From Nageia nagi (Eukaryota; Plantae; Pinophyta), in contig JBITNC010000001.1 of the NCBI GenBank assembly GCA_050084985.1, forward strand, positions 215,822,001-215,886,000: 64,000 nucleotides of DNA. The letters are read 5' to 3'. The position numbers were made by a program, and so were the translations under genes. The notes beneath the pieces were generated by a model. That model had not been told where the DNA came from, ran no database searches, and worked only from the letters and a program-made list of their open reading frames with translations. Shown here one piece after another: positions 22,501 to 61,275 of the stretch (positions within the stretch are counted from its first letter, which is position 1; the number at the start of each line of letters is the position of its first letter).

Positions 22501-25500
22501 AAATCCAAATTTAAAATAGAATTGGAATAAATAAAATAAAATAAAACTGTTGCAACTGCAACAACATGCCGTTGTGCTCTTCTAGTACTCTTAGGCTCGT
22601 GTATCTCCCTGGCCTCTGCAACATTGAAATTGACCTATTCACCTTTTGAGCACCTACAAGGACAATCTAGTAGCCTACGTGTATCACTGGGATGACTTGG
22701 GACTGTCTTTGAAATTTGGCCATGTTGGACGTATGTCCCAAACTTGGAGCATTCCGGAGAAAGACAAGATTTTGTCTTTTGAAACGGTGCTCCCAACTCT
22801 CTCTTGAGCTAGATGTGACCTAAACTTACTCGTTTTTGCTCGTCCTGGTGTCCCAACTTACCGATTTTGCACAACGTACTAACCCAAAGGCCCCTCCCAA
22901 CCTAGTGCATGATTTCAAAAGACAAGATTTTGTCTTTTTGAAACTCCCTCCAACTTCTCCAACTCTTCCAATCTGGGCGCATGGTTTCAAAAGACAAGAT
23001 TTTGTCTTTTTGAAACTCCCTCCAACTTCTTCGGCTCTTCCAGTCTAGGCGCATGGTCCAGAAAGTCAGGATTCTATCTTCCAGAGGCATGCGTTGGGTT
23101 GTAGGTGGCCAGATTTGCTTCGTTTGGGTCTTTTGCTCCTGGGACTTAGTCAAATTTATAGTTCACTCCATTTTGGTGACTTCCTAGGCTTGGCGTATGC
23201 TCCCAAAAGTCATGAATTTGTCCTTTTGAGGCATGCGCCAACCCCTCTAGTCATGCTGGAGTGGGATCTAGGCTCCGAGGCTCCATGCCTTAACCAAATT
23301 TTCCACTTCATTTTGTTTGGAAGCCTTCCTACTCTAGGCGCATGCTCCCAAAAGACAAGATTTTGTCCTTGCGCTCACCCTAGGGATGCTTGCTCTTCAT
23401 TTTCCATTTCTCCACGCTCCCCACTCATCCGTCTCGACCCTTCATGTTCATGATGATACCTGAACTTGTTCATTTTTGCCCTTCTTGGTGTCCCAAGTTG
23501 TCAAATTTGCCCAACGAACTGGTCTAGAACACCTCCCAGGCTGAGCACATGATTTCAAAAGACAAGATTTTCTCTTTTCAAAACATGCACCCAACACTCT
23601 GGCTCCTCCAGTTTGGGCGCATGATCTAGAAAGACAAGATTGTCTTTATGGGGCATGCGTTGGGTTGGAGATGGTCAGATTGATTGAATTCTGGCTTTCT
23701 GCTCTCGAGACTTAACCAATTTTTCGTGTTTCTTCTATCTTGATGTCTTCCCAGGCTTGGTGCATGCTCCCAAAAGTCAAGAATTTATCTTTTTGAACTA
23801 TTTGCTAGCCCCTCTAGTCCTAATGAAGATGGATTTGGGCTTCAAGGCTCCATGCCTTAGCCAAATTTTGCAATTTGATCAAACTAGATGCCTTCCAACC
23901 CTTGGTGCATGCTCCCAAAAGACAAGATTTTGTCTTTTTAAGGCATGTGCCAACCTCTTGGGTGGGTCTGTTTCTCTTTTACGGCATTCAAACTCATCCA
24001 GGCGGCTTCCTAGCTTAGGTGCATGCTCCCAAAAGACAAGATTTTGTATTTTTGAGGTATGCGTTGGGCCTAGGGGTGGCCCAGTTTGCCTTTTCAAACT
24101 TAGATTCAGATTTGGACGTCTTCCCTACCTGAGCGCACGTCCCAAAAAGACAAGATTTTGTCTTCCTATGGCATGCGCTAAGTCTAATAGTGGTCCAGAC
24201 TCACTTGGCTTGTTTAGACTTGACACGGGTTCTCCTATCTCAACTAAACTCGATTTGAATTTCTAGACTTAGCTATTTCTTTTGAAGGATTCTGGTTTTC
24301 ATTTTGACATGAATAAGACCGAGCAGTTAAACACGCTTAGGTGATGGGATGATAAACATGGCTCCGAGTTAGACGGAGTCAAGAAGAAACAAGGCAAAAC
24401 ATGGTGTTGCATGAGTGTGAGTTGTGGAGGGTCCCCAAAATCACAAGATTTGGGGGTGAGTTGTGTAGAGCACAACATTAGCTAAAACAAAACAACAACA
24501 AAATGGCAAAGTGAATTAGACTTGACATATAACAGGTGACAACAAATGATGAACATAACGACACAACATCCTACTACAAAACCTAAATAGGTGGATACAC
24601 AGTGACTTGTGTCGTCCACTAGGAATGAACTTGTGTCAGCACTATCACTAACGACTGCATTGCCGATTTCATTATAGTGAGTGAACTCTCACTAGCTATT
24701 CGAGTAGCCATCAGGACACCTGCATTGCAATCTAGGTCCAGGGACATCAAGTTCATCGTTCCAACTATAGTCTCCAGAGAAAAGGACGATCCGTCCCTAA
24801 GCTCAATCGCTCTACAAATGTGTTCGTTACCTGTTACAGAAAATAACCAAGTTAGCATCACCCAGAGTGTCTGTTCCAACTGTAGTCTCTGGGAAAAGGA
24901 TGATCCATCCTTGAGCTTGGTCACTCTATTTAGGTGTTCCCGATGATATTCTTAAAGCTCGTATTTTTGTTCTTTCCATTTTTTTTCTCTTTTTTTTTTT
25001 GTGTTTTGTAGGAAAACTCAAAAAACATAAATTACAATATGGTACACATCCGAAGACGATAATTACGATTGAAAATAGTGCTTCAGATGCTTGCCATTAA
25101 CAGGCAACGTTAGTTATTCTCCTGTAAGATGCCTTAGCTTGAACATGGTAGGGCTTACCAAAGATGCAATCTGGAGAGGACCAAGCCAGAGTCTGTCGAA
25201 TTTCGCATGCTTTCCTTTGTCCACATGAGCCTTGTCCCATAGAAGGACTAGGACTCCGATTGTGAAGCTCTTCACTTGAGTGTTCTTATCGAACCATCTC
25301 TTGGTGTCCTGTTGTTGGCGAGTTAAGTTCTAAAATGCTCGCTCTCGCTTCTCCTCCAGATGAGTAAGGTTAACTAATTTGGTCTTCGAAACTTCATCAG
25401 CTTCCAAATAATCTGTCATTAATTGCATTGTGCTGATTTTCAGCTAGGTCGGCAAAACCGGGTCCGTTCCATAAACTAGTTCAAACAAGCTCATTTCGAG

Positions 25501-28500
25501 CGCATTTTTCACCCTAATACGGTCTGCCCAAAGAGCATACTTCAACTTGCTACACCATTCTCTCTGATTCTTGTTTAGTAGCATTTTGACGACGGTAAGC
25601 AAGTTGTTGGTCGACTCCGCTAGGCCATTACCTTGAGGATAATAGTTGGCAAAGTACTTGATATCAACATTATGCTCCTATGCCCAAGCTATCAGCTTGA
25701 GTGAGCTGAAGCCGAGACCGTTGTCACACACTATAGAAAATGGAGAGCCAAACCATGTCAAAATGAAGTCTTCTAGGAATTGAATGACCACTTCAAAAGT
25801 GGCTTGCTTTGTAGCTATGGCTTCAGTCCATTTTGTGTAGTAGTCTGTGGCGGTGAAGATGAATTGATGCCTCATAGAGGAGGAAGGGTTGATGACCACT
25901 ACGAAGTCCAGTCCCCACTTGGCAAATGGCTTTGATTCTAGGATTGGCTGTAGGAGCATGAAAGAACACTTCTCCCTTCCTATCGTGGTTTGGCAATCAT
26001 GGCATGTTTTTGCATAGTGGTGTGCATCTCGGAAGAGGAAAGGCCAATAATATCCAGCACGGAGGATTTGGTGTTCTAAAGTGTTCCCCGGTACGTGGCC
26101 TATTCAACCTTCTTGATTGTGAAACTCCTCTAGTATCCTGTGAGCCTATTCTTTCTCTAGGCATCTGAGGTAGACACCGTGATAGTTCTTCTTATAGACA
26201 ACCCATCCCTTTATCATAAACTTTGTTGTTCTGTACCGAAGGGCTCTCTTCTATGCTAAAAAAAAGTTTAGGGATAAGCACTTGAAGTTATGTAACAGGC
26301 AAGGTCTACGTACCAGGAATCTGGTGGGATGTCATCCGACAAACTTGGAGAGATATGTTGATGGGTTCATTGGATGATGGTGGCACTATGTTATCTCGGC
26401 AAGAGGCTAATGTCTTGGTGAGTCCCTACTCTCTCACAATCCTCATAGGCTGAATTGACAAATCGAACTCTTGGAGGGTTGAGATCCAGTTTCCTCTTTG
26501 TACACCCACTTCTTATTGGGCTAAAAGATTCTTTACTGTTGGATCTGGGACAATGGCAATCACCTCACTACACAAGATGTAGTGTCGGAACTTCTTGACT
26601 AATTTTACGAGGGCATAGGACTACTTGTCTAGCTTGGGATATCTCAATGTCGTGTGTCTCAAAAGAGCGGTCATGAATGCAATAGGTTTCTCCTTTTCTT
26701 CTTCGTCCCATTGTGTTAAGACTCCTTCCACTAAGAGTTTTGAAGCAAAGGAGTACAGGTAGAACGACTTCTTATAATCTGGGCTAGTAAGAACAGGTGC
26801 CTTGGATATAGCCTCCATGTCGTGAAAGGCCTTTTTTGCTTTGTTCGCCAATTTGATCTTTGCATCTGTCTTTATCATCTCATTGAGTGGTTTCACAATT
26901 TCAGCATATCCAGAGATAAATTTCCGAACGAAATTGATCTTTCCCACGAAAGACCTAAGCTTCTTTGGTGTAGCAAGGTAAGGGATTTTCTGAATGGCTA
27001 CTACCTTTTCTGGGTCAATGGAGATTTCTTCTTCTGAAATAATGTGACCAAGCAATCTACCCTTTGTGACCCCGAAGATACATTTCTTCGGGTTGAGAGA
27101 AATTTTGAATTCCCTACACCTCTAAAAAATTTGCCTCAAGGGTCGGGGATGATCATTTACATGTTTGGAATAAACAGTGATATCATCCATGTAAATGACT
27201 ACGTTTTTGCCAACCAAACCTTTGAAAGAGAAGTCCATTGCTCTCTGGAATGTGGCCCCGACATTGATCAATCAAACAGGCATGCGACTATAAGCAAAAG
27301 TGCCCGATTTCGTGGTAAAGGCGGTCTTCAGTCTATCCCTCTTATCCACCAGGACCTGATTATACCCGTAATAACCATCTAGGAATGACATCATTTGAAA
27401 CCCATTCACCATTTGCAGGACTTCGTCTAGGGAAGGTAGGGGGTAATTATCCTTCTCTGAAGCTCGATTCAAATGTCTGAAATCTATGCACACTCTGATT
27501 TCACCGGACTTCTTCCTCACTGGGACAATATTGGCTACCCATGTGAAGTGCCTCACAGGAAAAACGATCCCTGATTGAATCATTGGTTCTAACAAAGGAT
27601 TCAGCACCCTTTGTTTCTACCAAAACGGTCTTATCCCCAGCTTGAAAGGAATGGTATGAGTGATTATCCCTGGATTGTAAGTTTTCAACTGGTCATACAT
27701 CTAGGAAATCATGTCAATATATTCTCGACAGGCTTTTATGATTTCTCTTCTCAACTTGCTTGTACAAGATTTCCTGAGAAGGATATACTTCGGGTCTTGT
27801 TCTGTCCCTAGATTGATCTTCTTTGTTTCCTCTGCATTCATATGTTCCTTAGGTCTGTTCTCTTGGATCACATCTTGATCAAACAGGAAGTTGGAGGTAA
27901 CCATCAACATATTCATCTTGTTCACCTAACTGATCATCAAAAGATGGTTGCTCTTGTTCTTCTCCGATCTGCTAGGAAATGAAGACCCTTTGGCTAGCCA
28001 TAAAGTTCTTTATGTGCTTGTCATCATCAAAGACCTGAATTGCTTCGATGTTACTAGCACAGCAGGGGTATACAGCATCTGGATAGTGAACTTCTTTAAC
28101 TTAGTCCCTTCCACTGGATGGAAGGTACTTGCAACCACTGTCTATGAGTCTGCTACCATGTTGTACTTCCTCGAAATAGTCATGATGTTAAAGGCCTTGA
28201 AGCCCTCTATGAGATTCCACACTCGACTGGTATTGGTTCAAACAAGTGTCTTTGCAATGTTACATCCATATTGATTTCTAACATTCCTTGTTTGATTTCT
28301 TCTGCAAAGGGATGGAAGGCTAACTAGCGCTATGATCATCACTAGGCAGGGGAGAGTCGACAACATCTACACAATAGACTCCTAGATCTTCCTCTACCAA
28401 GGCCACTTGATTGGTTATGTTGTACTCTGTGATAGGGTTCATCAAATATGGCTCACTTAGAACCTTAATTTGATTTGACACCCCTTCCAAGGGAGCCACA

Positions 28501-31500
28501 AATGCTTGAAATCTGTAGACCAATAACCATTCAAGGTATTTGACCAGTTACAACTAAGTAACAGACAATACTTTTGGTGGGATCTTCACAACCTGGACGT
28601 CAATATCCCTTATGATATGAGGCTCTGAAGCAATTTGTATTCTTAGATTGTGTATCATTCCCACGACTTTTACTAGTGTTTCATCCAACTGGGTGATCCC
28701 TTGTGGGCTCTTGGCAATTGACAAGTTCAAGGCTTGACAAATCTCAAGGGGCATGATATTGGCACCCGCTCTTGAGTCCATCATACAATTGTGTAGATTT
28801 TTCCCAACCACTCTCATAGCGACTAAGAATGGTGGTATCATTTTACTACTCATGTATGTCTGGGCCTTGTCAAGAGAATTTGGATCTATGCTGGAGTGGG
28901 TTCTTCATTTGCATTCGCGGGAACAACTGGAGTAGCATTTGGTGTGCCTTGTTTTAACTTGCATGCACTAACTCCATTAAGGTAACCCAGGAGTTGGTCA
29001 TGCACTTGGTCTATCTCCATAGCTTCAAGGAAGGTGATATTTGCTTTAGGATTCCTCAACGCCTCAATAACATCATAAAAAAGGCTATGAAACTCATCAT
29101 TGAGTGAAGTTGTTTTCTTCCGTTTCCCCACATCTTTGTTTAGTTGCACAGGTGCTTTTTCTACCCTAGGAGATGTCTTCTATAGCTAGGGTTGAATATT
29201 TCTGACATGAGGAACTCGACCAAGTGGAGGTGGATTGTTGGATGAAACTAAATATGTTTTGGAGGATTTGGTTCTATCAATGGTTCTCTCGTCCTAAAGG
29301 TATACCCAAATCTCCTAGGATTCTCGAGTGTGACATAGACAGGTTTTGAAGCTACATATTGGGGTTCGGACAGCTCGTCCTCCACCTCTTCATTATTCCT
29401 CGTGTGATAGACCTCAAACATCAGTGTCTCCTCTTGATTGGCATGGGTACTTGGCTCATCGTTCGAATAAACTTCATAGTTATGTTGCACTTCTTGCTGG
29501 ATGATGTTGATTGGTGCAACAAACTCGGGATAAGAAGATTCAGGATTTGTTGTGTTATGGACCCTGCACCAAGTGGTTAGTGGGATGCCTGCCAAGTCCA
29601 AGAAATTGGCTTGAGACTGATTCTTGTCCTTTGCCAACGGATTGGGTATATTGCCTATGCCATTGTTAGGGCCGGTATTCCATGGTCTGTTTGGCCTTTG
29701 ATAGTTAGGATTGTGTTGTCTTTCATTATTCTACACATGATTCTGGTTGAACCCCGCATTAGGCTGAGGGACCCATATTTGCTAGTTTATTCAGCAAGGT
29801 TCTAGTGTCGTTTTGTTCTTTTTCCCTCCTCACCAACTACTCATCCCTTTTGATCAGTTCTTCCTCCCTCTTGGAGAGCTCTTAGTCTTTCTTGAGGGCT
29901 TCTGAATTATGAGGTTCATTGGCGGGCTTCCCTAAGACTTGACATAAAAGATTGCCAAAGTCCCCTTGGCTTGATGATGGTTGTGGAAGATTGGGATAGG
30001 CGGGTTGTGTTATTTGACCGATGAATTGAGCTATGAGCTCAGAGTTTAATAGAGTGGATTGTGAGGGAGTAACAGGAACAATAGCATTGGAGGTGGTGGG
30101 CATGGAATGAGAAGTGTATGTGAGAACCAAGGGGTTTGGCTGAACTATATTTGTCGTCATAGGGATATTGGGTAATTGAGGGGAAATAACATTTAGGAGA
30201 CTAGGTTGCAATGGAGACTGTGAATTATTTAGATTCAAGTTTCCTAACAGATGCATTAGGTTCGTAGCTCTTTTCCATGGCAGCGGCTACAGTATAAGCT
30301 TGTCGTAAGGTCCTAATGCCTACTTCTCTCCGTAGAAAGGCTGCGGTGAAGGAGTCGAGAGCTCTGAAATATATCTACACTGCCAACTGCTGATCCACTA
30401 TATGCGGTTCATTCAACTTGGAGTAGCCTCTTGAAACCAATCATTGAAGTTTCTTACAAGCTCATGAGGAAACTTCTTTGTATGGATGAATTGTTCAAAA
30501 AGAATGTTAGGGTCCATGGGTACTTGGAATCTCTAAGCCTCTTCTAATTGATCCCATGAGGTAATGGACCTAGGCGTTAGATTGATGTACCAGTCTCCTG
30601 CTTGGCCTTGTAGAGTATAGGGGAACAATCTGCAAGCCACATCTTCATGCTGGATATGTAATCTAGTCAAAGGATCAATATAATATTGGATGTGGTCCTC
30701 TATCGATGTGAGGCTATCAAGATCAACTTTCGGGAGGTGTTTCTCGTAATTGCGAGGTAGCTCGTGTTGTTCACTAGAAAAGTTAATAGGACTTATTCTC
30801 AACCATCTTGGAGGTGCCTCTTCTTCCATATTAGTTTCTTCTTGTGGAACGAAAGGGACAATTATTCAGATAGCATCGTTGTCTGGTGGTTGAGATGCTT
30901 CTAGTGCGACACTCGGTTGTGTAGGATTCAAGAATAGAATCGAGTGCTTAGGACTAGTGAAGGATGTGTTAGACAAGGTTAATGTAGAAGTGTCTCCCAG
31001 AACTCGACATTGAGCTTCGTCAGAGTCTTCGGATAATGACTAGTCTCTGGTTTTATGTTGGTCCTTTCTAGGCCTCAAATTATATCCAGCTAGGCCTTTC
31101 TTAGGTCCCAGCTTGGCGAGGTGTAACAAAGAAACAACACTGGCTTAAACACAAACACAATTTCAAAGGCCCTCCTTCTAGCGCCAATTAATGTTGGATG
31201 GTTTTTCTTTCCTACCCTAGAATAGTGAGAAAAACTCCAACACCTCAAGTGAAGGGATGTTAGTCCCTCCTGCTATGGGGACTGATTACCCCAAAGCTTA
31301 GCTTTGCAACTTGGAAAAGATGACTCAAGAACTGGCTGAGATGTTGGAAGCTGCCACCAACATGAATGTCGTGTGGATTCATATCAGATTATTATTTAAT
31401 TTTTTCCATTCTAGTTTCATCCCTGTCTCGGTGTATATTCTTGATGATTCAAAATTTACAATAAAATCAACAATAACCACTATTGCAATATAATTTGAGT

Positions 31501-37500: not shown

Positions 37501-40500
37501 TGAATTTATTTAAAACAACTTCCAATGAAGCAGCACCCTGAAACAGTCTTTCAGGTGATGAAATCTACTGAAGCCTCAAAAGTAAAACCTCAAAACAGCA
37601 TGTGTTGCATGTATCATCTAAACCGCCCAAAACGGTTACAAAAGTTTTCTATAAAAGGGACACAAAGTTTGTGCCTAAAAGAACTCGATGCTTCCTCTTC
37701 ACTGACAGTGGCATCATGGAAAACATCTTAGGTACAAATAAAAAAATAGAATTGGCCCTGGGGTACGCCCGAACATATGTTCTCTCTTTAATAACTGTAA
37801 GACAAACCACAATTCTAGACACAACTACAAAGTACTAAATATATGAGTGACAAGCAATCAATTTACATTTTGGAAAGACTAATTCTAATAAAGCTAAAAA
37901 GTAGAGAATAATTTAAATTCTCATTTGTATTATTTTACATAAAGTTTACTCGTTTCAAGTATTCTAACATCTCTAGTATTCATGTGACACACCCCAGCAA
38001 ACCATACACATGAAACAAATCGTAAGAAACATAGAAAATACTCTAAGACAAATTCCAGGTAATGGTGTCCAGTCCCTTTTTATACTATCGAGACTATTTA
38101 ATCCATGTAATGGTGCAGAGTCCCTCTTATACTGTCAAGATTATTTATTCCATTTGATGGTGTGCAGTCCCTCTCACATTGTCAAGATAATTTATACAAA
38201 ATCTATTTCTCTATGAGGAACCTCATTGACTTTGACATGTTAGTTGTGGCATTTATATTTTGTCAGACTTTTAAGTGCCACTTACATCACTTCATGTAGG
38301 AAATCTGATTTTGTATCGGTATGTGTGTTGCGTGTGTGCACACCATATCAGATTTGATGCCTTTAGGGCAACGCTTCTAGTGGCCTATTTATACCCCATC
38401 CTGGCCATTTAGAAGGGGATTTTAGCATTTGGAATATTTGCATTGGAGGAATTTTGCAACTTTGCACTTGGAATACTGCATGATATTATGTATTGTTGCA
38501 TATGTGAAACTCTGCACTTAATGGAAACATTGCATATTGACGATCTTGCATTTTGGGATGCTAGCTATAAGTTTTTATGTGTGTAAGATTTTCTAAGTTG
38601 TTGCATCCTTAAGTATTTACATTCCATTGCATAGAGGTCCGTTGCATAAGGGGTTCTATGCATGTTCATCATTGAATATCGTTATGAATGTATTTCTTTT
38701 GAGGAATGAATTATAAAGTCCATACTGTGAAGCATGTCATTTGTGGGGTCATGCATATATGAATAACTTTCTCCCCTGGGAGTTGCATACTAAATATTCA
38801 TTGAAGTCGTTTGAGTTTTCTTCGCATGGTTTGCATGCAAGTGGATGTATTCTAAGGCTTATAGCTTGTCCTTATATCATTCGGTTAGGTCGTTGCACTC
38901 ACGCCTTCACTTCACTTATTTTTCCCACCAAGTCTTTTACCAAGACCCTACAGCTTCCTGCTCTCGTCGGGTAGTGATTTGAGCGTATATTGTTATTTGT
39001 TGCTCGGCTTGATAGTGAGTACATTGACCTTAATGAATTTGAAGATGACCTACCGAGACACTGCATTATTGGTGATACCTCAATAAGTTCATCCTTCCTT
39101 GTATTCCTTTGCATTTATCCCTGTGTTCTGTCCCTGCATTTGTGATCTTTCTTCGCTTTCGTTCACATTCGTAGTCTTTCCTTATTTTGGAAAGAAACTC
39201 CGGCATTGTATTTCCCTTGTATATGGTTAACAACATGCATCTCTGACTACTGAGCCTTAAAGACCATATTCCATGTGAGCACTTAGGGTAACCAGTCCTT
39301 TCAGGTGGAAACAAGTAACGTTGTTTCCTCCAAGTCTTGTGCATGTTTTGGACTAGGAAAGAAAAACATACCAATAGGCCTGCCTCCTTGTTCTGCAACA
39401 TCGTCGGATGTCACCGACAATCTGGATTGAGATCCCCTCTTCAATTGCACTCTCCTTGGTAATGACTCAGGGGTTGGATCTTTGTTTTTCCGTCGAGATG
39501 TTGAAGGCTCCAAAATGTCATAGTTGTCGACCTCCTTCAACATCTCAAGAGATAGCTCTTCATCTTGGGCATCCTGAATATCGTCTTCGGGAATAGTACT
39601 AGTTGCATGCCCATTCTCTGGCTCTTCATCGGATTCATCTTCAACTATGCTCTCATATTCCCCTTCTCAGGCATGCTCTGACGATCATTGTCTTCCTGCT
39701 CACCTGCGCGTTCTCTCTCAACAGTGTTATCAGGTTCGTACAAGTGGTCTGAAGATTTTGACACTGACGATGGGGCGATCTAAGATGGACATGACACTAT
39801 TGTTCTTGGTGGCCTTTGGGGTGGCGACAAATTTGCTTCTTTGTTCCTCTTCCTCACACATCTCACCACTTTATTGGTCGCCACATGCTCTGATTCCCTC
39901 ACATCATGTTCATCAACTGTATCTCTAACCTACTTGCGCTACTTGTTCAACTAGATTCTTCCCGTGCATGGATGCATACTGTTCAACAGGCTCTTCAATC
40001 GTTGGTGGAAAGTGAGTGACTCTAGAGGTGGATTCTTGTGGCTTCTTTCCTTGAGACTGAGAAAACTTCTTATCAATAGATGCCTCCACTTCTCGTTGTT
40101 GCTTCTGAGCCTCTTCCTGCATCTTGGCACGGATCTTCTTCATTTCCACTTCAGTGCTGACGTTTCAAAATGACTCCTCATCTCTAAGTGGCCTATGCTC
40201 ATAGGCCTTCTTCCTTTCCTTCATGTAGAAGTCATGGATTCGGTGCTTAGGATCATAGTGGGTGGCGGTTGGCATCTTCTTGAAGTTGTACCTTCCCAAC
40301 TCCTCTATCATGGAATTCACATCCACCCATGCTCTGCACTGATACTCTCCCACTATGATCAACAAATTGGAAGTGGCTGACTTCTTTTGCCAAACATGCT
40401 CATGTAGGTAGGTCAACTACCTCATCATCTCCATCAAGAGCATCTTTTTGCTCACATACCAAGGCAGTTGATATGGCAAGTTTGCCTCCCCTAAAGTTGT

Positions 40501-43500
40501 AGGCCTTTGCTTGCTGTGAAGTAGCAGGTATACCAAATAAGAGTTGAGGTAGAATTTGCATGTGGTTCCCACTAATGACAACTGGTCCATGATGCTACCA
40601 CTCAACACCTTACTCCACTTGATCTTCTTCCCTATAGATATCTCTACGATGAAGCCAAAGAACTCCTTCCAGAATTTTGGGTGCATCCTCCTTCCCGAGA
40701 ACTCTTGACAACATGAGGATCATTAATTCCACAGACGGATAGAAGTGGGAACGAGGGGCATTGATGAATGCGTTGCCCTTTAGGCCATTGTGTTCGTCCA
40801 GCATCCAACTCTTGATCACCGTGGCTGCCCTATTTGTGTCTCGATAGCATGCCAACGACTCTTCCTCCGTATACTCAAATTTGCCCTCTGAATTCCACTA
40901 AAATATTGTCTTGATGGCTTCAAGGCTGAAGTCCATGATAATATTGCCTTTGATGTCATGGAGCACTCTTTCGCCCTTCTTCCAATGCTGGCCAATCTCC
41001 AAGCACAACTCTGGGAACGGAGTTGTGAATGGGACAAAGGTGCAATTTGAGAGCCCAGAGAAGAAGACAATGTCTTGTTTCAACTCACTGATTGACATGT
41101 TCCTGATCGTCTCCCTCATCTACATTGGATCCACCTTTTGCCAGTCTGTGTCTCCGATGGTGGTCTTGCCTCTCACAAATGGTGATGATACAATCCTGCC
41201 TCAACCTCTCAAGGTCCCTAGCAAAGTCTAAAGTTGAATTACCCTTGGAGGAAGTCATGATGTTCTAACTTGCAACGTTGCTCCTCAAGAGTGGTGCGCA
41301 GGTTTCTAGGCGAATAAGACACCCACGTTGGAGTAGCTTGCCTCCCAAATGCTTGCGCAAGCCCTAGGATGCATGAATGATGGAATTTGAGCACAAAGAT
41401 CTGCAACGTGCTGCTATTCTGGTGTAAAAATGGAAGAGGAGCGAATTCTAGATTTGAAAAAATGAGGTCCCAAGCTTGTATTTATAGCCCAACTGGCTCC
41501 CAACTTGCCCTAGTCGGCTAGGGTTACTGGCAAACATCATCTCAATCCTCCATTTGGCCGACCTTGAGATGTGTGCTAGCCCAAAAATTCATGAAAAACT
41601 GTCTATTCCCAGACGTTGGGGATTTGGAGCTCAAAGTGGCTTGCGCATGACAAAAAAAGACAAAATTGTGACTTTTTAAATCATGCGCCAACCTTGGGGG
41701 TGAGCATGCTCCCAATGTTAGGTCTCTTGCTTGCTTGCTTACCTGCCTTGATCACCAACTTACTGAGTCACCTGATTTCTCTCGATTTTTGGTCTTCCTA
41801 TCGACTGGACTTGATAATTTTAATCTTTCATCTCAACCTGGGCAACCTATAAGCTTGGCACATGGTTCCAAAAGTCAAGTTTGTGACTTTTTGAGACATG
41901 CACCAACCTTGCCTGCTCGTCCAACCTGATCACATGGTTCAAAAAGACAAGATTTTGTCTTTTTGAATCATGCACCAGCCTCCAGATGGCCTAATTTTCG
42001 TGATTTGATACTTAAGTGCTCATGCCTTTGCCAAATTTTTATCTCTCTGGGACCCTAGAGGCTTCCTAGGCTTGGTGCATACCTCAAAAAGTCAAGAATT
42101 TGTCTTTTGAGATCATGTACCAACCCCCCTAGGTGTGCTTGAGCTGATCTTGAGGTTTCTAGGTCCATGACTTGTCGAATTTTTCCCTGTTGCTTGAACT
42201 GGAAGCCCTTCTAGGCTTGGTGCATTGTTCAAAAAGACAAGATGGCATGCGCCAGCCTCCTGAGCACCTTAGGTTCATTTCCCGACTCTCGAACTTGATC
42301 AATTCCTCCTCCTGGCCAGGTCGCATGGTTCAAAAAGACAAGATTTTGTCTTTTGAAACCATGTGCTAGCCTTGTTATGCCCTTGCCTTAGACTTTTCGT
42401 GCTCCACTTCATTCCAGCCTGCTTCCTGTGCTTGGCGCATGCCCAGGAAAGACAAGATTTTGTCTCCCCAAGATTGCATTTTCAAGTCTCACTTCCAATT
42501 GACGGCCTCCAGGCCCTATTGCATGATTACAAAAGACAAGAATGTCTTTTTGAACCATGCGCCAACCCTTGGAGATGCCCAATTTGAGTTGGTTAGGCTC
42601 CGAGTCTTCCTAGACTCCCTGGTTCACCTAAGGTCAACTTTACACTTTCCAGACTTAGCCATTTTTTTAGGAATTTCAAAATTTCTAACTTGGTATGACT
42701 AACCCTAGGCGTAGAATGAGGCTTGAACCAAAGAAGAATTGTCTATGAATCTGGGTCTTTGCGGCACAACTTGGGTGGGACAAGACGACGACACAACGAA
42801 GTATATACATCACAGGTTAAGGGTTCCCAAAATCACATGATTTTGGGGCATGTAGTGTTTTAGTCACAACACAAAGGAGTATACAAGATCACATGTAAAT
42901 GTAGTACTAGTACATCATACATTGATCAAATAAGTAGACAATGTAATCCAGGGCAAGGGAACATAGTGCTGATCCACAATGTAATAGAATCCATATGTCT
43001 GCCTTTACAAACATGCAAACATAACAAAATATCACAAGCACATTGAACATGTTAAAATGTTGGCCAGGTACAATAATTTCAAGGAATAAAGAATCCGAAG
43101 CTCAAAATCAAATTCAATCTGAATAATATCAACAGGGACCAAGGTCTTAAAATCAGTAGGGTCTAGCTTCCGATTATAATTTAATCTTCAAGCAAAGTAT
43201 TAAATATGAAAAGCTATATCATGAGGATAGTAATTATTAATTATTGAATATTATTGGGTGACTATGCCTGTTGTGGTTTTTCTCAAAATTGACTTAATGT
43301 CATCTATATTATTTTCTTAACCCTGCGAGTCTACCAACAGGTCCCACAGATTCGACCCAAAATGTTAAAGCTCTTATACTCTGATGCAAGATCGCCAAAA
43401 ATCATGTATCAAATGATTAGTATTCTGCCTTCAGAAGAGCCATTGGACATCACATTTTTTATCTCTACTCACGAACCTTTATGATTTGTAAGAACACAAA

Positions 43501-47800: not shown

Positions 47801-50800
47801 TAGAACCAAAAGGAATTTTTATAAATAATCTGCATTTTAAGAATCTATGCTAAAATGAAAGGGTCACCATCTCTTGGCTTTGCAACTGTGGCAGCTCAAT
47901 CATGGTATCGTGTCTGTCAAATTAAGTGTGCAGATCAATGCTTGTCACAAGAAATGGTGGATTGAATCCTTTTTAGATCAGTAGTGCGACACCTTCAATA
48001 TTTGACCAATAATGGGACCAACATTTACTCTCTCTTACCTTTCAAAGTTTCAACAAGACCCACATGAGTCACATTAGAGAGTGCCCAAATGTATTGAGGT
48101 ATGTGAAGAAGGCCTATCACAAAGACATCTTCACAAGAGGTAGAACTCCCACATTTGTGGAACGCTCAAGTTATAATTGAGGTGATGACCAAGATTATTG
48201 GATGTCAACTAGTAGAAATGTGTTTTCTTTTGAATCTGGTCCTATAAAATGGTTGAGCAAAAAGCATAATGCATGTTCCTGGTCCTTTGTCAAGGCCATC
48301 TATCAAAATGTCATGGAAACTGGTTAGGAAGCAGTGTGGTTCAGATAATCATTGCACAAGGTTAGCTTGCCTCAGGATATTTGGTTTGTGGGTGCATTGT
48401 GTTGACGTGATTTTGTTTACCCGCCCATGAAAAACAACACCATAAAGAGTGAGGTAGCGTTTGGTGTTCTTTTGTAACAGAAGTGGCTCAAGTAAGAATA
48501 TGCTCAGGGTGGTTAACTCACAAAGTAATTACTTACCTCCGACTATATGCAGATTGCAGAAACGATCATTCATCCATTTAAGAAAGGCATTCAATCATCT
48601 TTCCCTAAAGTGCTGAACTTTCAAAGGAAATCCTCGTAAATGCATAAATGATACAACAACATGTACTTCATGCCATATGCGCAACTACAATCCCATGAAA
48701 TAAAAAATCACAATTCTATTAATAACAGAGTTTTCCAGAGTGATTAATCATACATACATGCAATGGAAACTTCAACTGCAAAAATATGCTCCAAAAATAT
48801 GCTCCTTAAAAGATTTGATAAAAGCAACTACAAAGTCTCTATGCTCATATCCTTCATCTATCTATGTAGCTCTATCCATCTATCTATCTCTGTATATCTC
48901 AAAAATGACCCGGTTATGGGTACTAATAGTATGCCTCTGACAACTTCATTAAATGAAGCGTCGCCCTAACATTGATTATAGAGTTGCCCTAAACAACCAT
49001 GCAACCCTAATACTATATCGAAAAAACACAAAAACCATCAACAAAAAGAAAAACTGCAGCTAAACAACACCGCTCAATGTCACGTCAATCACATCAGTAT
49101 CTGATCACACCCGATCAAATCAGATTTTATCCATCCGTCAAATCAAAAGTCTTTTTGCAACTATTGAAGCAAAAACTCATCCGTCACAGTGCAAAATTTA
49201 AAATATGAAAGTTTTAACAAAAAATAAAAATATGCATTTATCCAATCATCCCTCTGTGGGACTGATAGCATGGGCAACAGCAAAGAAATCCTCAAGAATC
49301 CCATGAGACTTGTCATCAAAGAAGGCCTTGGCCTTGGCGAGTGCTACAGTGAGCGCATCCAGCAACTCCTCATCCTTTCTGTTGCGGAAGTCAAGGATGA
49401 ACTAAGAGGTGGCCTCCATCTAAAATTTCCAGACGGCCAAACTTTGTTGATTCTCAATGTGAGTTCCGGCTCTCAGCAAATTCACATCCTTTGTGAAGAT
49501 GAGCTCCCATATGATGTTTTGATTTTCTTGTACCACGAGCTCAACTCGCCTTGCACTTCCATCTTTATTTATAAAGCTAATTGGCTGCACGAACTGGCTC
49601 ATCTGAAAAGTCAAGGCAAACATCAATTCAATCCTTGCCTGTGTGAGATTGGCACATTCCCCCATAGCGAACCTTAACCAATGCAGATGATAGGCAAATT
49701 CCTAACAATACTGAACTCGACTAAGCTGTCCTTCCAATGCTTTTTTGATGTTTTGGATAGCATGCTCATGATTTTGAAAGTCATGCAGTAGCTGGGAGAC
49801 AGCAACTGTCGTACTCTCTTTTGTCTTTTGTTCGTCTATAAGGGAAACTAGCCGGAGCAAGAGCTCATTGACCACCCTCATCACTGCATTGACCAAAGTC
49901 TCCTTGGTTGAAGTTATGTCAATGTTTAGTGAGGTCTGCACTTTAATATCTTCAATGGTCATCTTAGCAGCTTCTATCTCTTTTACCAACTTGTTCTTCC
50001 AAGCCAGATCCTTCTTCAATTCTTTGAGTGTATTTTCTCTCTCGATCTCCTGTTTGACCATCTCCTCTACATTGTAATTAATAGCATGCTTGCGATCACC
50101 CCACCCAATCTACTTGACCTTGAACTCCTCGGTGTGGACCCGCACGTTCTACAAATCCTGTGGATGTTTCTTCGTGGAGTAGCATCGGTTTATGGTCACT
50201 TTATCAATCTTCATAGATATGAAAGTATCGATTTCTTCAATGGGAGAATCTTCTGACATATCTTCTCTCCTTTGGCTTGATTCATCATCATCGCTCTTAT
50301 AGCTTGTCTGAAGGTCTTTAAGGATTGCATCGATATCAAAATCATACTCCTATTATCCTGAGCTAGTTGCAACGTTGGTCAAAGTGGTGTCCATGTTTGT
50401 TGGAATGGACTCTCTGGGGATTTCTTCAATTCTCAGTTGTTGGCTCTTTACTTCAGCTAGTTTCTTCTTACTTATCAATGACCTACGATTGCCATGTTCT
50501 TGTTGCTTTCTTTTCTTTCTTTGCTCCTCACTTTCACCTTTATCCTCCTTGTCTCCCCCATCTCTAGTTGCAAAAGTTTTGCTTAGCTTTGAAGGCTTTC
50601 TAGGGGTCGTTAGAGAAGTCTCTTCCTAGGGGATGACGTTCTCTTCCTTCGTGGAGTGGCAGATTCTGAAGAAGCAACCTGCTTCACTAATGCCAACCTT
50701 GTGGGCAAAGCCTCGCCAATCTTCTCTGTCTCGGACTCCCCTTCATTGTCCACAATTTGGGTATCCTTCGTATTGGACTATGAGCCTTCGCCATCCTCAT

Positions 50801-53800
50801 GCTCCTTTTCAGTCTCTCCTTCTTCTGAATCCAATTCGTGCAAACCACAGGATTCAAAGGATGTCTCAGAATCGGAAGATGAGCTTGAAGGGTCAAGGTC
50901 TGCATGTTGGTTTGTAGTGGAAGCGTTCTCCTGGGTTTCAACCTCAATGGGCTCTAGGAATGTGTTTGCTACGTGTTCCTCGACAGGCATCAAGAGATTC
51001 GGGAGAGCCAAAGGATTCTCAACCCGGACAAGTACAATAGGCATCATGGGGACGTCCCTGGGGATGGCTTTCTCAAGCTGCTGGAGTGGGAAATCCGGAT
51101 ACCTTGTCTCTTTCATGATAGCTACATCCTTGGTGATCTCTTTGACAACAGTGTGAATCCTGAACTTAGCCCCACCCAAAGTGGTGTGCTCTCCTATTTG
51201 TCTCTGATGTTTCCTCACTCTCAAGGAGGAAGTGGATTTATCAGCTGAGATGGCCCGAGGATCATTCAGGCTTTGAATTCTTCTAACAATTCGTCCCTCA
51301 GCTACTAAGATCTGGTGAATATCCTAAATCTGTTTCTCCTCCCTCTTATTCATGTATCTCTCCTTATCTCCAAGAGCTCAATGCTCATAGATTACAGGAT
51401 TTCTAAATGCCTGTTTGTAGAATCACTGAATCCTTCCTTCAAGATTGTAGTGGGAGGTTGTCTCTGACTCTCCCCCTCACTGAAATGATAATAAGACAAT
51501 TCATTGCCCATCTCCTTAGCCTCCTGCCAAGTTGAGCAAGTGTATTCCCTGATTGAGATGGGGAGATTTGTTGTAGCATTCTTCTTTTTCCATACATTCT
51601 CATACAAAAATAATAACTGTCTGCAAAACTCCACAAGACTGAGGCAATTGTTGGCGTACTTGGGTAAGAGATAAGGCCTGACTTCAGAGACATAGACCCG
51701 AATGTAGGTGTGTGTGGGGTCTTCCAGCAAGTGATCTGCATGCCCCCGAATAGCCTCAACGGCAAGATCAGATATCCTCTTCACCATTTGTCTCCCCTTT
51801 ATCTCCTTGTAAATCTGATATTCCCATCCAACATTCCTCATGGCATAATAGTCCCCTCTTGACTCTAGCCACCACTTGGGGTAGACTCTCCATACAGGTT
51901 TCTCTAGATTGTTCAAGATCTCAACGTCTGTGTGGGCTGATTTCCTATTTTTGCCGTGGAGGAAGAGAAAAACTAGATAGAAATTCATATAAAATTTCTT
52001 TGAGGAGCCAATGTGGGCCAATTGGAACAAGAGGGAATCACTTATCACCCTACTCCACCTGATTTTCTGTCGATTCCTGATCACAGCAATGAATCCGGTA
52101 AACTCCCTTCGAAATTTGAAGTCATCCTCTTTGCTAGTGACCCTGGACAACATGCTGATGATCTTGGACACTATGGGGTAGAAGTGTTGCCTTTTTGCAT
52201 TTAGCAACTTATTCCCCGTAAATCCTTTGCTCTCATTCTCAGAATCTCGAGCCAATCTCCGATGAGATCTGCGACTCGTGGATATTTCTCATAGTATTCA
52301 AAGGAATCTTTCTCCATATAAACGACCCCCTCGTTACCCAATTTGAAGGTTTCCTCAATCCCCTGTGGAGAGAAATCGAGGATCTTATTGCCATCAGTGT
52401 TGTAAAGGGCTCAATCTTTGAAGTTGGCATGCCTACCTACTTCATAACACAGCTCGGGAAAAGGAACAGCAAAGGGAATTAGGGTGGTAGTAGCTAGTCC
52501 GAACGTGCATACCACTTCTTTTAGGATCTGGACCTTGTCTAATTCCCCAGTGGCTTGGAGTGTCCGAATTGGGTTAGTATGTGACCAGTTGGTATCCCGG
52601 ATGTTGATGAAACTATTCTTGAATTTAGCTTGTTTCTGAATACGATCAGTCAACCTGGCCAATTGCAACTCTCTGGTTTTTTCCCAACTTGGAATTAATC
52701 TTCACCATTCAGAATCTGCTCAAACAAACCAAGTTAGTAGTGATTGGACTTTGACAGATGTCGAACGTGGTGCAAGAAGGATGCAATGCCTGGCGGATCT
52801 TTATGCCTTTGTATGGATGCGAACTTTGGACTATGAATGTTTATGACAAGGTGGTCAACCTTTCCCAAATGCAACGTTGTTTATGATATTACTTCAATGC
52901 ATGAATGTGTGCACGTCGACCAGCCGATGGCCCTCTTTTTAAAATGCAAATGGACTTGAACCTGGTTGCACCAAATTGGAAGGATGCTTTCCGAACTTGG
53001 GCAAATGATGCTACTGCAAAAAGATGACTTCATGCAATGCGACAAAATGGAAGGTTCGACTAACTAAGACAAAACAAAAGACTTAACGTATGCATGGACC
53101 CACTTAGGACAAAATGCAGCTGCTACTCAAATGGCCATGTAGCGAAATTTTACTTGATTAATGCAAAAGGTGGTCACGTCCATTTAGAATGATGGACATC
53201 TATCTCCTAAGGACCATGCGACCAAATGCAATAATGAGTTAATGCAAGACACAAGGAATGCGACAAAACACAAGGTGTCAATGTTAATGCAAGGAGAAGG
53301 TGGTCGCATGCCTTTGGGAAGATGGATGTACGACTTAATAAAATCGTGTGACCAATAATGAAGTATCAAACTTGACTAAGTCACCCCCCTCTTTTCTTTT
53401 ATAGGTGCTCACGATTGCCAGATGGCAACTTTTTAGGAAGGAAACAAGTTTTTCAACAAGTGTCCCCTTTCATGCAAGAGTGGTTGCTAGCTTTTAGAGT
53501 GATGCAATTGTAACTTTGCTAGAACGTGCAACTAGACATAAATGAACTAAAGTGCCAAACTTGATCCAAAATGCAGTTAGGAGGGTGATCGCCCATTCTT
53601 CAAAAGATGCAAATGTGACTTCTTAAAACCATGCGATCACTTGAACCGGACTTGAATGCAAGGGAGGGGTGGTTGCATGTCTTCTAAAAGATGCAATTGA
53701 GACTTGCTAAAACCATGCGAACACTCCTAGAATTTGTTTGAGCTAATACTTAGCTAAATTTTGGAGGTGAAAGGGGGATCAAGACTTTTACAACAGATGA

Positions 53801-56800
53801 ACCTGTAACTTCTCTAAACCATGCGACCACTATAGATGCCAAGTTTGACTTAGTACAAATGAGCACTTGTTCCTCCTTTTATAGTTTCTTGCTTGACAAG
53901 TGACCTTTCTTGAATGGTCACAGTGAAGGTCAAATGAGAGCAAGACAAACCTTCTTAGTGCATGTTCAACGTTTGGAAGGGATGGTCGCATGCTTTGCCA
54001 AAGATGGGTTTGCACCTTCTTGAAACCATGCGAACGCCTATTGGGAGCCCTTCGATCAACATTTAACCAATTTCAGAGCCCAAAATCTTGAGAAGAAGGT
54101 GGTCGGATGGCTTTTGAAAGATGCAAGGGTGACTTCTTCAAACCATGCGAACACCTTTGGGGAGTTGTCAGCAAAAGTGAAATAGGTAAAACAAGTGACT
54201 TCCTCCCTTTATACTAGCCCTACTTGTCAGTTGTCCTCATATGTACGGCTAGGGTGAAGGTAGAATGAGACTAAGGCAAGTTCATGCATGCATGATGAGA
54301 CGTCCAACTGAGGGTGGTTGCACGTTTCATGAAGGATGGATTCGCAACTTTTACAAACCGTGCAAACACCCTTGAAGGAGAAGTTTTGGACACTTAGCTG
54401 TCTTTGAAGCTCCAATGTTGGCCTAAGAGGGTTGGTCGCATGCTTACAAAAAGAAAGATGGATTTGTAACTTTCCAAAACCATGCGAACACCTTCCAAAT
54501 GACCCATTTTTCTTGTTTTTAGCTTTGCTTCTTCAAGAGGTGGTGGTCGCATGATTTTTGAAGGATGGTAATGCAACTTTTTGAAATCATGCGAACACCC
54601 TCAAGATGAAAAATTTTGAGGACTTAGTCATTTTTAGGGGCTGAAATCTGCTTGAAGGGTGGTCGCACGATTCCTCAAAGATGGATGAGTGACTTTCCTA
54701 TACCATGTGAACAACCTTGGACTTGGCCAATTTTTTGGTGACTTTCTGAGATGCGAGATGCCATGTACCTGAAGACTCAATGCAAATTCTCATGACTTCT
54801 CAGGAACTTTGCTTGTTTACAATATGAATTTCACCTTCGTTTCCATGGATGGATTCTTCAGAAGGCTTTTTCTTTGTTTCAAGTAAGCCTTTTAAATGCA
54901 TTTTTAAAGTTGCACTTTGGGCTGTTCTGACCAACTTTCTTCCATTGCTTCCCAAAATGCTTCTTGGGTCAAGCCTTCCGAAGCTTCCACTTTGCTTTTA
55001 AAACTGAGGGTCCCCGTCTTTTGCAAAAAAAAGGAGGGGTGTGTTGAAACGTCAACACATTGAAGGTCCACTAAATATTATACTGAATAAGGAAAATGTA
55101 ACCTCCTAAATGTCACATCAGAACAAAGAGAAAGTAGAGAAAAATCATGGAAAAACGTTAAACTAAATCAACAAAATTATTCTTATTGGAAATAAGTATG
55201 ATGTATCCCTAAGAACAGATATAAGACTATATGAAAAGAGTGAACAATCTCCCTTGGTGGTGTGTGACACTATTGACCGCTTCTTTCACACCTATACGTA
55301 TTCAAATCACAAGAAATCCTAATTTTAAATTTTTTTGTAAATACTACTCTTTTTGTTGGAATTTTGAGGGCCATCTACAAAAGTTCTAACATTTAAGAGA
55401 AAATAGCAATACAGCTCCTTAAGACTATGTATGTCCCAGATGTCTTCAAGAAGTTCAAGATGGAAGACTGTAAACCTGTAGCTACACGCTTGGCATATGG
55501 GACAAGTCTTGTTACTATAAAGGTTGGCCGGAAGGATCCTTAGTTGGATGAGACCCTTTGTACATCAAATCTGTAAAGCCGGAACCTATTTGACTGATAA
55601 CGGGCCCAATCTTTCCTTTATTGGGTCTTACCTTTCAAGGTGCCAGCCAGACCCACGAGTCACAGCACATCGGCCAAAACTAAAAGCATTGAGGTTTTAG
55701 AAGCAGACCTGTCACAAAGGGATCATCTTTCCCAAGGCAGCGCTCCCATTTTTTTGTGATAACTGGAATTCTGATTGGGGTAGTGACCAAGATTGTCAGA
55801 GGTCCACTCCTGAGGTTATGTTTACTTTTGGAGCGATCCTATAGCATGGTTGAGCAAGAAATGGGTCTGTTGCCAAGACTATGCATCAGGAAATCAAGAC
55901 AATTGATGAAGAGGCACCATGGTTCAGCCATTGTAAGAACTTGAATTTCCTTGAGCTATCGGGTTCATAGGTGCACTGAAGGTCCACTAAATATTGTATA
56001 CAATACCTACAAACTCAAGCTCCTACATTGTCCACTAAAAAAAGAGATAACAGGACAAAAACATGGAACCTTTCAATACACACAAGAAGAAATATTGAAC
56101 TAAATCACAAAAATTAATTATATTCAAGCTATATGCGATGTATCCCTAAAAATAGATGTAAGGATATATATAACTAGTAAACTTGAAATTCCTTGGAAAT
56201 ACGTTACTCTTGGCCTATTTTTCACACCTATACCTATTCAAATCACACAAAATCCTAATTTTATAATTATCCTACTTGTCTTTATATTTAAAAATGTTGA
56301 CACCCTCTGCAGCATTTTTAAGCAAAACCAATAATACTGCTGAATTTCTCCTTAAGACTAAGTATAATCCAATTCTCTTGAAGTTCAAGAGGAAGATTCT
56401 AAGCCTGTATCTGCACCCCTTAAATATGGGGCAAATCTTGTTAATATAAGGGATAGCCTGAAGGAATTCAATATATACAAAGAGGAATATTAAACTAAAT
56501 AAAAAAAAAAATTTACTCCTATTGGCACTGTGAACAACGCATCCCTAAGATCAGAATTTCCCTTGAAAATGTGAGACTCCTAAAATTTTATTTCATACCT
56601 TTATCTATCCAAATCACAAGAAACTCCTAATTTTACAATTCTTAGTACATCCTACCCCTCAAATTATTTGAAATTTTTGAGGGCCTTGGTAGAATTTTTA
56701 ATGCAAAGCAAATGATAGAGGTAAATACCTCCTTAAAGTATGAACACAATTTATACACCCATAAATGATAACCACATTCTAAGATTTCCAACATATTTTG

Positions 56801-58327: not shown

Positions 58328-59621
58328 CTGCATGTGTAAAGATCATTTGTATCAGGAAAAAGCATTTAAGAAGAGTACAATAGCACACAAATCAAGAATG
58401 TTACAACGAACAAATGCATTACTGATTAAATTATTCAGCTAGTACATGTTATTGAGCTTTTGTTTAATCTTAAATCCAATGATCAATGGCCTTAACACAG
58501 ACAAACAAATTAAAATTGTACTTGAGTACTACTTGTACAGGGGATAAAGTAAAATGTTCTGGAAATTCTAAATACAATAATTCCAAGGCACATTATTCCA
58601 TAGGATTGGGCAAGTTTCACAAGGCTATTCCAGAAGGATGAACCTTTTGAGATCTAAGTAGCCTTGAGAAAATTTGTTTTGAGTTCTAGGTATTTTGCCT
58701 TGAAAATTTTCACCCAATTTCTCTCTTCATTACAGCTCAATTTCCATCCCAGTTTGCTTTTTTAAGTGCCAAATTGAAATGCATTTTATTTTCGAGACAT
58801 AATCTTCCTCCTTTTTTGGGCAAACATACATTTTCCCGACTTACTTATAATTCCACTTTAATGTCCATGGAAGCAGTAAGATTATTTGTATTGTTAGGGG
58901 GGGTACAAGTAACATACAGTTCTTTAAGGGGGGAATTCTAAATTTCTAATACTTAATGGATTTCAATGGTTTTCCTATGCAAGATATGTTTCCAGTAACT
59001 ACCTTGAGTTGTGTTTGTAGACTCAAAAAGTTTTTGTTCCTTGGCTAGAAATAGCCATTTCTACTTTTTAATAAGTTCTTGTGTTCTTTTACTTTTCTTA
59101 TTTTATTGCCTCAAAAAAGCAAGGTGTACCATTAATATATATATATATATATAAAGTTTTATTTTAAATATTATAATGTAATTTGTAACCTAATGTATTT
59201 AATATTATTAATTAGTTTTCTTTTAATTGCAAATACTATTAAAAAAAAGTGTTCTAATTTAATATAAAAATTTATTCAAATCATAATTTGCATTGCATCT
59301 ATATGTATAGAAAATTTCATATTTATTGATTAGGATTTAGAATATATATATATATATATAAAAGTTGGATGGTTGATTTTGAGGATCCAAGAACCTTCAC
59401 ATATCATCCAAATATGAGCATTCAAGCACTTCCCTACCATTTCAAAACATGCCAAAATAGGAAGGTTCTCCCTTCCATTTACATCAAACTACAAAACAGG
59501 ATACTACTGCATTATGCTAAAAAACAAAGACAGAAAACAAACACAACATCCAAAGCATCACTCACTCAAACCGCCTTCAACCAACACCTTAATCTTCTCC
59601 AGCCTTTTGGTTGCTTCCATG

Positions 59622-61275
59622 TGTTGGGTAGTTTTTCTTTCCTACTTTGTTGATAGGCAAATGACTTGCAAGGCTCATAAAGAATACCAATACCTTAGGT
59701 GAAAGGGTGTTAGCCCTTCCTGCTATGAGGACTGGTTAACTCAAAGACTGGCTAAGATGTTTAGAGCTGCCACCAACTCAAATAACATTTGTTTGTCAAG
59801 GAATTAGATTGTCACAATACCTGAACAAGGGTTTTTTCTTAAATGCTACAAACAAAAGAGGTGCAAAAAGTCGCATGAAGAAAGTGTAAAATAAGAAAAA
59901 AATGTATGATAGACAATGGGTATGTGAATTTAGTACAAGTGTATGACTTCTCACCGACAGGTGCAGGGTCTGGAAGTCAACTCTCCCTGGGCTTAGTATA
60001 GGTTCTACGCACTCCTAATCCACTCCACTAGCCAACAACACAAATGGTCTAGTGAGAGAAGCATGAAGCTAAGGCAAAGATGGCAAATGGTGAGACGTGA
60101 GCAGTCCTTAATAAATGGAGTAAAGTTCCTAAGTTAAGTGACATAAGAGAGCCATTCCAAAATACACAAGTCTATTATGCAAACAATGACCTATTGCTTT
60201 CAAACACTACTCAAATCACTTCAAAAGATGTTCAAGCACTCTTTCATCCACCTTATACAAGATTTATGAAATGTTCCAACCAGCTCAAAGGAACATAAGA
60301 TAGCAATAGCATTCACTTAATCACTTCAGATATATCATCACCATTCATTCATGTTCATAGTCACAAAGAATGAGAGCATACACACAATTTAAAAAATATA
60401 CCACATTCACAATTAACACAAAATTGTTTGCTAAGAAGTATTACTAAGTTCTGTAATTGTAAAATTGTCCAATCCCCCCTCAAAATGAGCCTTTAGGGGC
60501 TATAAATAGTTTTGGTGGCAACCCCAAGCGTTGCCCTAACCCTAATACAAATTCCAAGAAAATAAACAAAGGTACGATAAAAATTCACCACATGGCGTTA
60601 CAAGATTAACTCCAGCACTTGTAAGATCAAATCTCCACCCATCACAACGCCTAAAAAAAAATATAATTATTTGAAGTTTAAAAATGATTATAGCTGAAAT
60701 AAAATAATAATAATAAAAATAATATATGGTCGTTGCGAAAGAGCGGCAACATGGTCCTCGAAATCATTATCCAAGTATCTTGCGACGAGTTCCAACCCAT
60801 AAACTATCTCACTGCATGCTTCCCTATTCCTCTCAATGAATTCATCCACCTTACAAATGGTCCACTCCATCTCTAGCTGCCAGGCATATACCTTCATCAT
60901 ATGCTCAACATGGCTACCGATCTGATAAGCGTTCACATCCTCTATCAGAAGCAAACCTCCAATCAAGTGCTTTACCTCTACGATCACTTCACTAGCCTCT
61001 TTGATCACACCATCATCTTCGAGGAACTTCACTTCGTATTGCATTGCCTCCATCTGAACATGTACCTTATATTTTACCTTCAACAGCTCCTTGCTCAACT
61101 CTTGACACCAAGATCCTGACTGTCGTAACCATCCCACATGGAATCAATACTCCCTACAAAAATTAGCATTTGCTTGACTATCCACTACCACTGGTTGAGA
61201 TCTTGTAATAACAGGTCTTTGTTCCTCCAATGAAGTGACTAGGGTTTGCTTTATGCCTTGGATTGCTATTTTTGA
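59622..61275 (-). mobile_element. Diverged family A-like LTR 3' part with the C-terminus of the LTR ORF
   Basis: TGTTGGGTAGTTTTTCTTTCCTAC end; colinear with 11378-12450; TATAAATAG and CCCTAACCCTAA at ~60500-60545. Confidence 0.8.
60688..61275 (-). pseudogene. C-terminal domain of the LTR-encoded protein (EDVNAYQIGSH)
   Basis: Aligns with 12506-12916 (VKFLE.D, V.EV.HL, EDVN.YQ.GSH, LEL.AR.L). Confidence 0.75.

Follow-up and report, generated by a model that had tools for sequence, protein, structure and literature searches.

A candidate VANC-like gene inside the long terminal repeat of Tat-lineage retrotransposons and its association with family-specific spaced palindromes

The 64,000-nucleotide stretch of contig JBITNC010000001.1 from Nageia nagi (hereafter the window) contains several long terminal repeat (LTR) retrotransposon copies in which arrays of spaced palindromes accompany a long open reading frame (ORF), and it raises the question of whether the encoded protein and the palindromes work together. 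The original prediction proposed that each LTR family pairs its own ORF variant with its own palindrome, as a lock-and-key system for transactivation or anti-silencing. We favour, at about even probability, a reading in which the protein of a gene within the LTR, VANC21-like by structure prediction, would have bound its own family's palindromes and kept host silencing from shutting down the LTR promoter. More tentative is the general proposal that a plant, probably gymnosperm, Tat lineage carries a self-activating anti-silencing cassette in its LTR, consisting of a VANC-fold gene and four-turn palindromes that co-diverge by family. Two points were missing from the original prediction: the gene sits within the LTR, and many LTRs retain the array without the gene.

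The family E copy E2 (48400..55057, minus strand; 6,658 bp) begins with TGTTGA, ends with TCAACA, and contains an array, an ORF and a 3' end region. CATTG is present on either side as a 5-bp duplication, and the interval has no primer-binding site (PBS), no internal LTR pair and, apart from the array, no direct repeats within it. Contigs from three public runs were aligned over E2 (329, 781 and 2,431); their depth was restricted to 48400-55057 and near zero beyond the edges. For comparison with the window copies we used ten loci from metagenomes, out of at least 581 candidate stretches; one of them, L004, is colinear with E2 and stops at the same end. Together, the terminal sequences, the flanks, the lack of a PBS or LTR pair, the contig cover and the L004 end indicate at the sequence level that E2 is one solo LTR bearing a gene. 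The assignment of the family E ends as LTR ends depends on an aRH-integrase fragment located between the ends of a second copy, E1, and on one contig with a PBS-like stretch past an E end. E1 (13763..20085, minus strand) is a deleted element, flanked by GGGCA and GGGCC and inserted in an A-clade ORF, that comprises an LTR 5' part (20085-16777), the aRH-integrase fragment (16790-~15300) and an LTR 3' part (14908-13763). The element order of array, TATA, ORF and LTR 3' region was found piecewise in L002, L003, L005, L009 and L010, being scrambled by inversions in L003. All copies in the window are dead.

The E2 ORF (49255..52710, minus strand; ~1,150 codons) is interrupted by several stops and frameshifts. 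Its product would consist of an N-terminal VANC21-like domain (~52700-51200), an acidic low-complexity linker and a conserved helical C-terminal region (~50340-49255). E1 retains only the N-terminal part (16777..17750, minus strand; four stops), which breaks off at 5 nt of microhomology to the aRH fragment. The ORFs of E and A had been described as homologous but diverged, and sequence comparison confirmed the homology; the gene is under purifying selection. When the fold of relatives was predicted, VANC21 was top-ranked in two models, at 8% identity, and the predicted protein carries an extra C-terminal subdomain relative to VANC21. Pfam searches with 20, 30 and 9 sequences gave no match to the DUF1985/VANC domain, PF10536 (PMD-A) or PF04195 (TRP28); sequence comparison gave no match to the VANC21 chain, and a viral library no structural match. 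Distant relatives at 21-29% identity (P0031, P0044, P0046, P0071 and P0082) make the family wider than the five clades considered below.

The E2 array (53168..54716, minus strand) consists of 12 units of ~56 bp, 84-215 bp from one another, whose arms, GTG(G/T)TCGCATG and CATGCGACCAC, form 11-bp inverted repeats around a partly symmetric core; TATA-like boxes are interspersed with the units near 53404 and 53884. The E1 array (18246..19678, minus strand) has 8 profile matches together with gapped or core-deleted units, also interleaved with TATA-like boxes. Two methods located E units where they had been predicted. A relaxed pattern gave 17 matches in 53170-54714 and 18248-19559 (spacer 34 bp in 14/17, 35 in 2/17 and 38 in 1/17) and 2 stray matches, with differing spacers, outside both arrays. 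An ungapped profile gave the 20 units of the two arrays (12 and 8) and no further units in the rest of the window or in the ten loci, and an equivalent A profile gave 46 units, of which the window contains 25 and the loci 21. Both profiles were trained on these very units, making their scores in-sample; with that limit, they had 0 matches in 10 mononucleotide-shuffled windows, and each rated the units of the other family below zero. A family-blind scan for spaced inverted repeats counted 7 in E2 (0-3 in shuffles), 6 in E1 (0-2), 8 in L002 (0-3) and 6 in L005 (0-4); the decayed A arrays of the window showed no excess in the strict scan (2-3 against 0-4 in shuffles).

The predicted distance of about 40-45 bp between arms was confirmed: the CGs of the two arms are separated by 44 bp in E and by 42 bp in A. 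Because the outer arm (CGCATG) and the inner arm (AAAG) are common to both, with 2 bp and the core differing, the E and A palindromes are, judged by sequence, variants of one design. The claim that the families have their own palindromes is thus sustained for distinct variants, as the negative cross-scores show, and not for unrelated motifs. A third type, the D motif CTAGGCGC...GCGCCTAG, forms 8 full units ~183 bp apart, again with CGs 44 bp apart; the A array period is ~114 bp. In L002 (455-1985), the D period is 182-184 bp in 7/8 intervals, close to the nucleosome repeat length. Identity between E1 and E2 is 217/275 in arms, 153/197 in cores and 521/763 in linkers (arms versus linkers, p 0.0008; cores versus linkers, p 0.011; the comparison is partly circular). 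The motif positions thus appear to be kept better than linkers, which would be a better sign of function than the match between clade and motif described next. The near-four-helical-turn spacing, retained while the sequence changes, likewise argues for function.

Does motif type follow ORF clade? Among the five ORF clades formed by the window copies and the ten loci, E, A and C were fully supported, and D and F are single rows. In native upstream DNA, two E copies have the E motif, four A copies the A motif and one D copy the D motif, a match in 7/7 that agrees with the predicted pairing of ORF variant and palindrome. Several observations weigh against taking this as lock-and-key co-evolution. 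The clade-C copy L010 makes a strict one-to-one relation less likely, its one unit having D-like arms, and only three clades are informative. Clade-specific motifs would also be expected without binding, because array and ORF are copied together in the same LTR, and the pattern is no proof of co-evolution. In five A LTRs (window 4177 and 24477, L006, and two in L008) the gene is missing, although array and 3' region are present; binding by host factors would explain these LTRs equally well. The predicted placement of arrays directly upstream of ORFs applies to three window arrays (E2, E1 and A at 41.6-42.6 kb) and fails for two A arrays, at 4.5-5.6 kb and 22.7-24.2 kb, which lie in gene-less LTRs. 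The VANC analogy of the original prediction gained support from the fold rank, purifying selection, motif conservation and the match of motif type to ORF clade; its lock-and-key component stays a candidate, since linkage would also produce clade-specific motifs.

In the mechanism that we favour, a protein dimer or oligomer would touch two half-sites, each containing CG and separated by 42-44 bp, or about four helical turns, and, once bound, would open or demethylate the LTR. This opening would feed back on the promoter of the gene itself, and gene-less LTRs would exploit the protein in trans. It is less probable, if a serious alternative, that the arrays serve host transcription factors as enhancer repeats, with candidate sites of the B3/RY, DOF and ARF types, that the VANC-like protein does something else, and that the pairing is only apparent, through co-travel in the LTR. 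Besides the linkage and the gene-less LTRs already mentioned, this explanation draws on CATG within the arms, on AAAG within the inner arms and on the frequency of family-specific tandem arrays in Tat-lineage elements (PMC11963269; this and all sources below are cited from parts of their text). However, the B3 alternative named in the original prediction fits poorly, with exact CATGCA in only 1/20 E and 14/46 A units. CG is the most frequent state of the arm dinucleotide, its main variants being CA/TG, as expected from methyl-C decay; the D motif has arms without CATG but still the 44-bp spacing; and a fixed-length dyad of 54-60 bp would exceed what short host sites need.

We consider it improbable that the protein binds the arrays for a role other than activation, such as self-repression or copy-number control, looping between two LTRs, or integration tethering. 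PMD-fold host proteins do work in silencing and not just against it (PMC5418596; 10.1101/2024.09.27.615353), the elements are often nested in one another's ORFs and LTRs, and the E TATA-like boxes amid the units would be open to blocking by bound protein. The sole structural match, however, is an anti-silencing factor, and nesting is ordinary in repeat-rich DNA; no array-targeted insertion was seen. At least as improbable is that the units serve, close to the 3' end of the genomic RNA, as hairpins (for packaging, export or protection from small RNAs), possibly protein-bound. Their folding does beat shuffles (median z -2.4 for E, -4.2 for A and -4.2 for D), and the A inner arm exchanges GACA/TGTC and GTCA/TGAC on both sides together in 35/46 units; a dimeric DNA binder also predicts such symmetric swaps, however, and they are largely structured by copy. 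Both strands fold equally, the main asymmetry of E (T opposite C, 8/20) does not make a wobble pair on either strand, the loops of E and D are of fixed length with conserved unpaired sequence, and the matching fold was solved on double-stranded DNA.

The elements have reverse transcriptase (RT), RNase H and rve domains in order, a PBS at 31186 and the CATTG duplication, and the RVT_3/aRH fragment inside E1 (E 3.5e-06) is above cut-off. Possession of an aRH domain places them, as far as domain matches go, in the Tat lineage of Gypsy (PMC6317226). An A-type element body (25050..31381, minus strand; 5' LTR end 31381-31192, PBS 31186-31171) encodes broken gag, protease, a weak aRH-like stretch, RT, RNase H and integrase. 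For family A, the LTR ends are shown by the PBS, which lies 5 nt past the end at 31192, and by the gag, RT, RNase H and integrase that come after it. The aRH-like stretch between protease and RT (pairwise E 5e-04, no Pfam match) would fit TatII, described from gymnosperms. In the E1 pol fragment (15300-16790, minus strand), unlike the A element, in which aRH apparently precedes RT, aRH lies immediately ahead of integrase, an order reported for angiosperm Ogre/Retand (PMC6317226). The LTR gene may be common to two Tat sublineages.

A3 and A2 are gene-bearing A copies in the window. A3 (39400..42871, minus strand) has an LTR start of TGTTGTG, an A array at 41639-42568, TATA near 41490 and a broken A-clade ORF (~41210-39400) truncated by a clade-C LTR end. 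A2 (11378..21412, minus strand) is split by insertions into ORF pieces at ~21412-20086 and 13762-12500 and an LTR 3' region at 12427-11378. The gene-less A LTR at 21419..24477 (minus strand; 3,059 bp, A array 22743-24182) lies downstream of gag-pol, and the ORF piece below 21419 is part of a separate LTR into which this element inserted. A truncated gene-less A LTR (4177..6776, plus strand; A array 4472-5604) has an 18-nt purine tract just before it, which supports its start at 4177. A 3' remnant of another gene-bearing A-like LTR, with ORF tail and then LTR end, is at 59621..61242 (minus strand). A further spaced palindrome type, GGTCGGCCA...TGGCCGACC, occurs singly ~30-50 bp ahead of the A LTR TATA (window 41500-41565; L005 ~4104-4152; L003 ~2315-2362).

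Each LTR start has a short TGTTG...CAACA hairpin (55040-55057, 20070-20085, 42853-42871 and 24460-24477) and then a CCCC...GGGGACCC motif. A ~50-bp stretch located 50-100 bp before the LTR end (13813-13862) is under very deep contig cover, and similar words occur in E, A and C LTR ends near 21480-21530, 31260-31300 and 39280-39330; it is likely a conserved U5 signal. The LTR 3' regions contain an antisense TATA-like box and telobox-like CCCTAA repeats (22320-22430, 12270-12320, 60495-60545 and 48960-49010); in Arabidopsis, teloboxes co-occur with MAIL motifs (10.1101/2024.09.27.615353). Mutual nesting in genes and LTRs is seen at window 13763, 21419 and 39377, at L006 1688, and at L008 3004 and 13742-16324. 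A separate Gypsy element (6776-11378, plus strand), with its own LTRs, protease and a tRNA-Met-type PBS near 7926, interrupts an A LTR. A broken hAT-like transposase with a DUF659 match lies at 34273-36954 (plus strand), and a similar second stretch at ~63100-64000.

The extra ORFs and repeat arrays of the Tat lineage have no established function in the portions of PMC11963269 and PMC6317226 covered, and the sequence-specific anti-silencing systems in the literature covered come from DNA transposons. If correct, the proposed mechanism would provide a function for Tat extra ORFs, and it would make an LTR retrotransposon the carrier of a sequence-specific anti-silencing system, for which our searches found no description; the main text of a preprint on transposon-encoded regulators, as far as covered, is without mention of LTRs or retrotransposons (10.64898/2026.08.24.746577). 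Solo LTRs arising by recombination would then stay sources of a trans factor, with gene-less LTRs as its parasites. A gene inside a 6.7-kb LTR outlasts solo-LTR formation, which bears on element spread in very large plant genomes and also on the origin of the VANC/PMD fold. Because the locus offers a candidate protein, a candidate site whose geometry is fixed and several protein-motif pairs of natural origin, specificity is directly testable in vitro. An in-LTR gene coupled to clade-specific four-turn palindromes was not found described in the literature searched, with subscription papers outside its scope.

Among known systems, the anti-silencing system VANC/VANDAL of Arabidopsis provides an element-encoded accessory protein of similar predicted fold (PMC5735166; PDB 9lnk). 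VANC proteins bind family-specific motifs, multiplied by tandem duplication in non-coding DNA by the gene, comparable to the E, A and D arrays (PMC5735166). The VANC/VANDAL host, however, is a Mu-like DNA transposon, whereas the host here is an LTR retrotransposon (TG...CA ends, 5-bp duplication, PBS and gag-pol), and the gene here lies within the LTR, with 54-60-bp spaced dyads, 8% identity, an extra C-terminal subdomain and no DUF1985. Because of the host type and the absence of DUF1985, the LTR-gene system, on these sequence features, resembles VANC/VANDAL but is not a member of it. A Tat element with a VANC-like fold is in itself not new, because Gypsy-encoded PMD-A proteins are known (PMC5418596) and PMD structurally resembles VANC (10.1101/2024.09.27.615353; PMC13547354); PMD was found in 57% of Ogre elements (PMC6317226). 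The PMD-A ORFs of Gypsy/Ogre are similarly extra ORFs of Tat-lineage elements and, by predicted structure, neighbours of the VANC/PMD fold. They differ in that PF10536 is absent here, in their description from angiosperms, and in that an in-LTR position is not described for them in the parts covered, which also give no target motif for PMD-A (PMC5418596, PMC6317226, 10.1101/2024.09.27.615353). Of the host PMD-C proteins (MAIN, MAIL1 and MAIL2), MAIL2 likewise associates with a palindromic motif (same three sources). Retand TRP28 ORFs share the Tat lineage, a proposed DNA-binding regulatory role and family-specific arrays; they are antisense, between pol and the 3' LTR, with PF04195 and LTRs of 0.3-1.2 kb (PMC11963269). 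The ORF here, by contrast, is sense, within a 6.7-kb LTR, and lacks PF04195. The in-LTR gene also resembles sag of mouse mammary tumour virus, which lies inside the LTR with its own promoter, and the proposed role resembles that of foamy-virus Tas, a self-encoded DNA-binding activator of the LTR. Both of these come from vertebrate retroviruses, unlike the plant element here.
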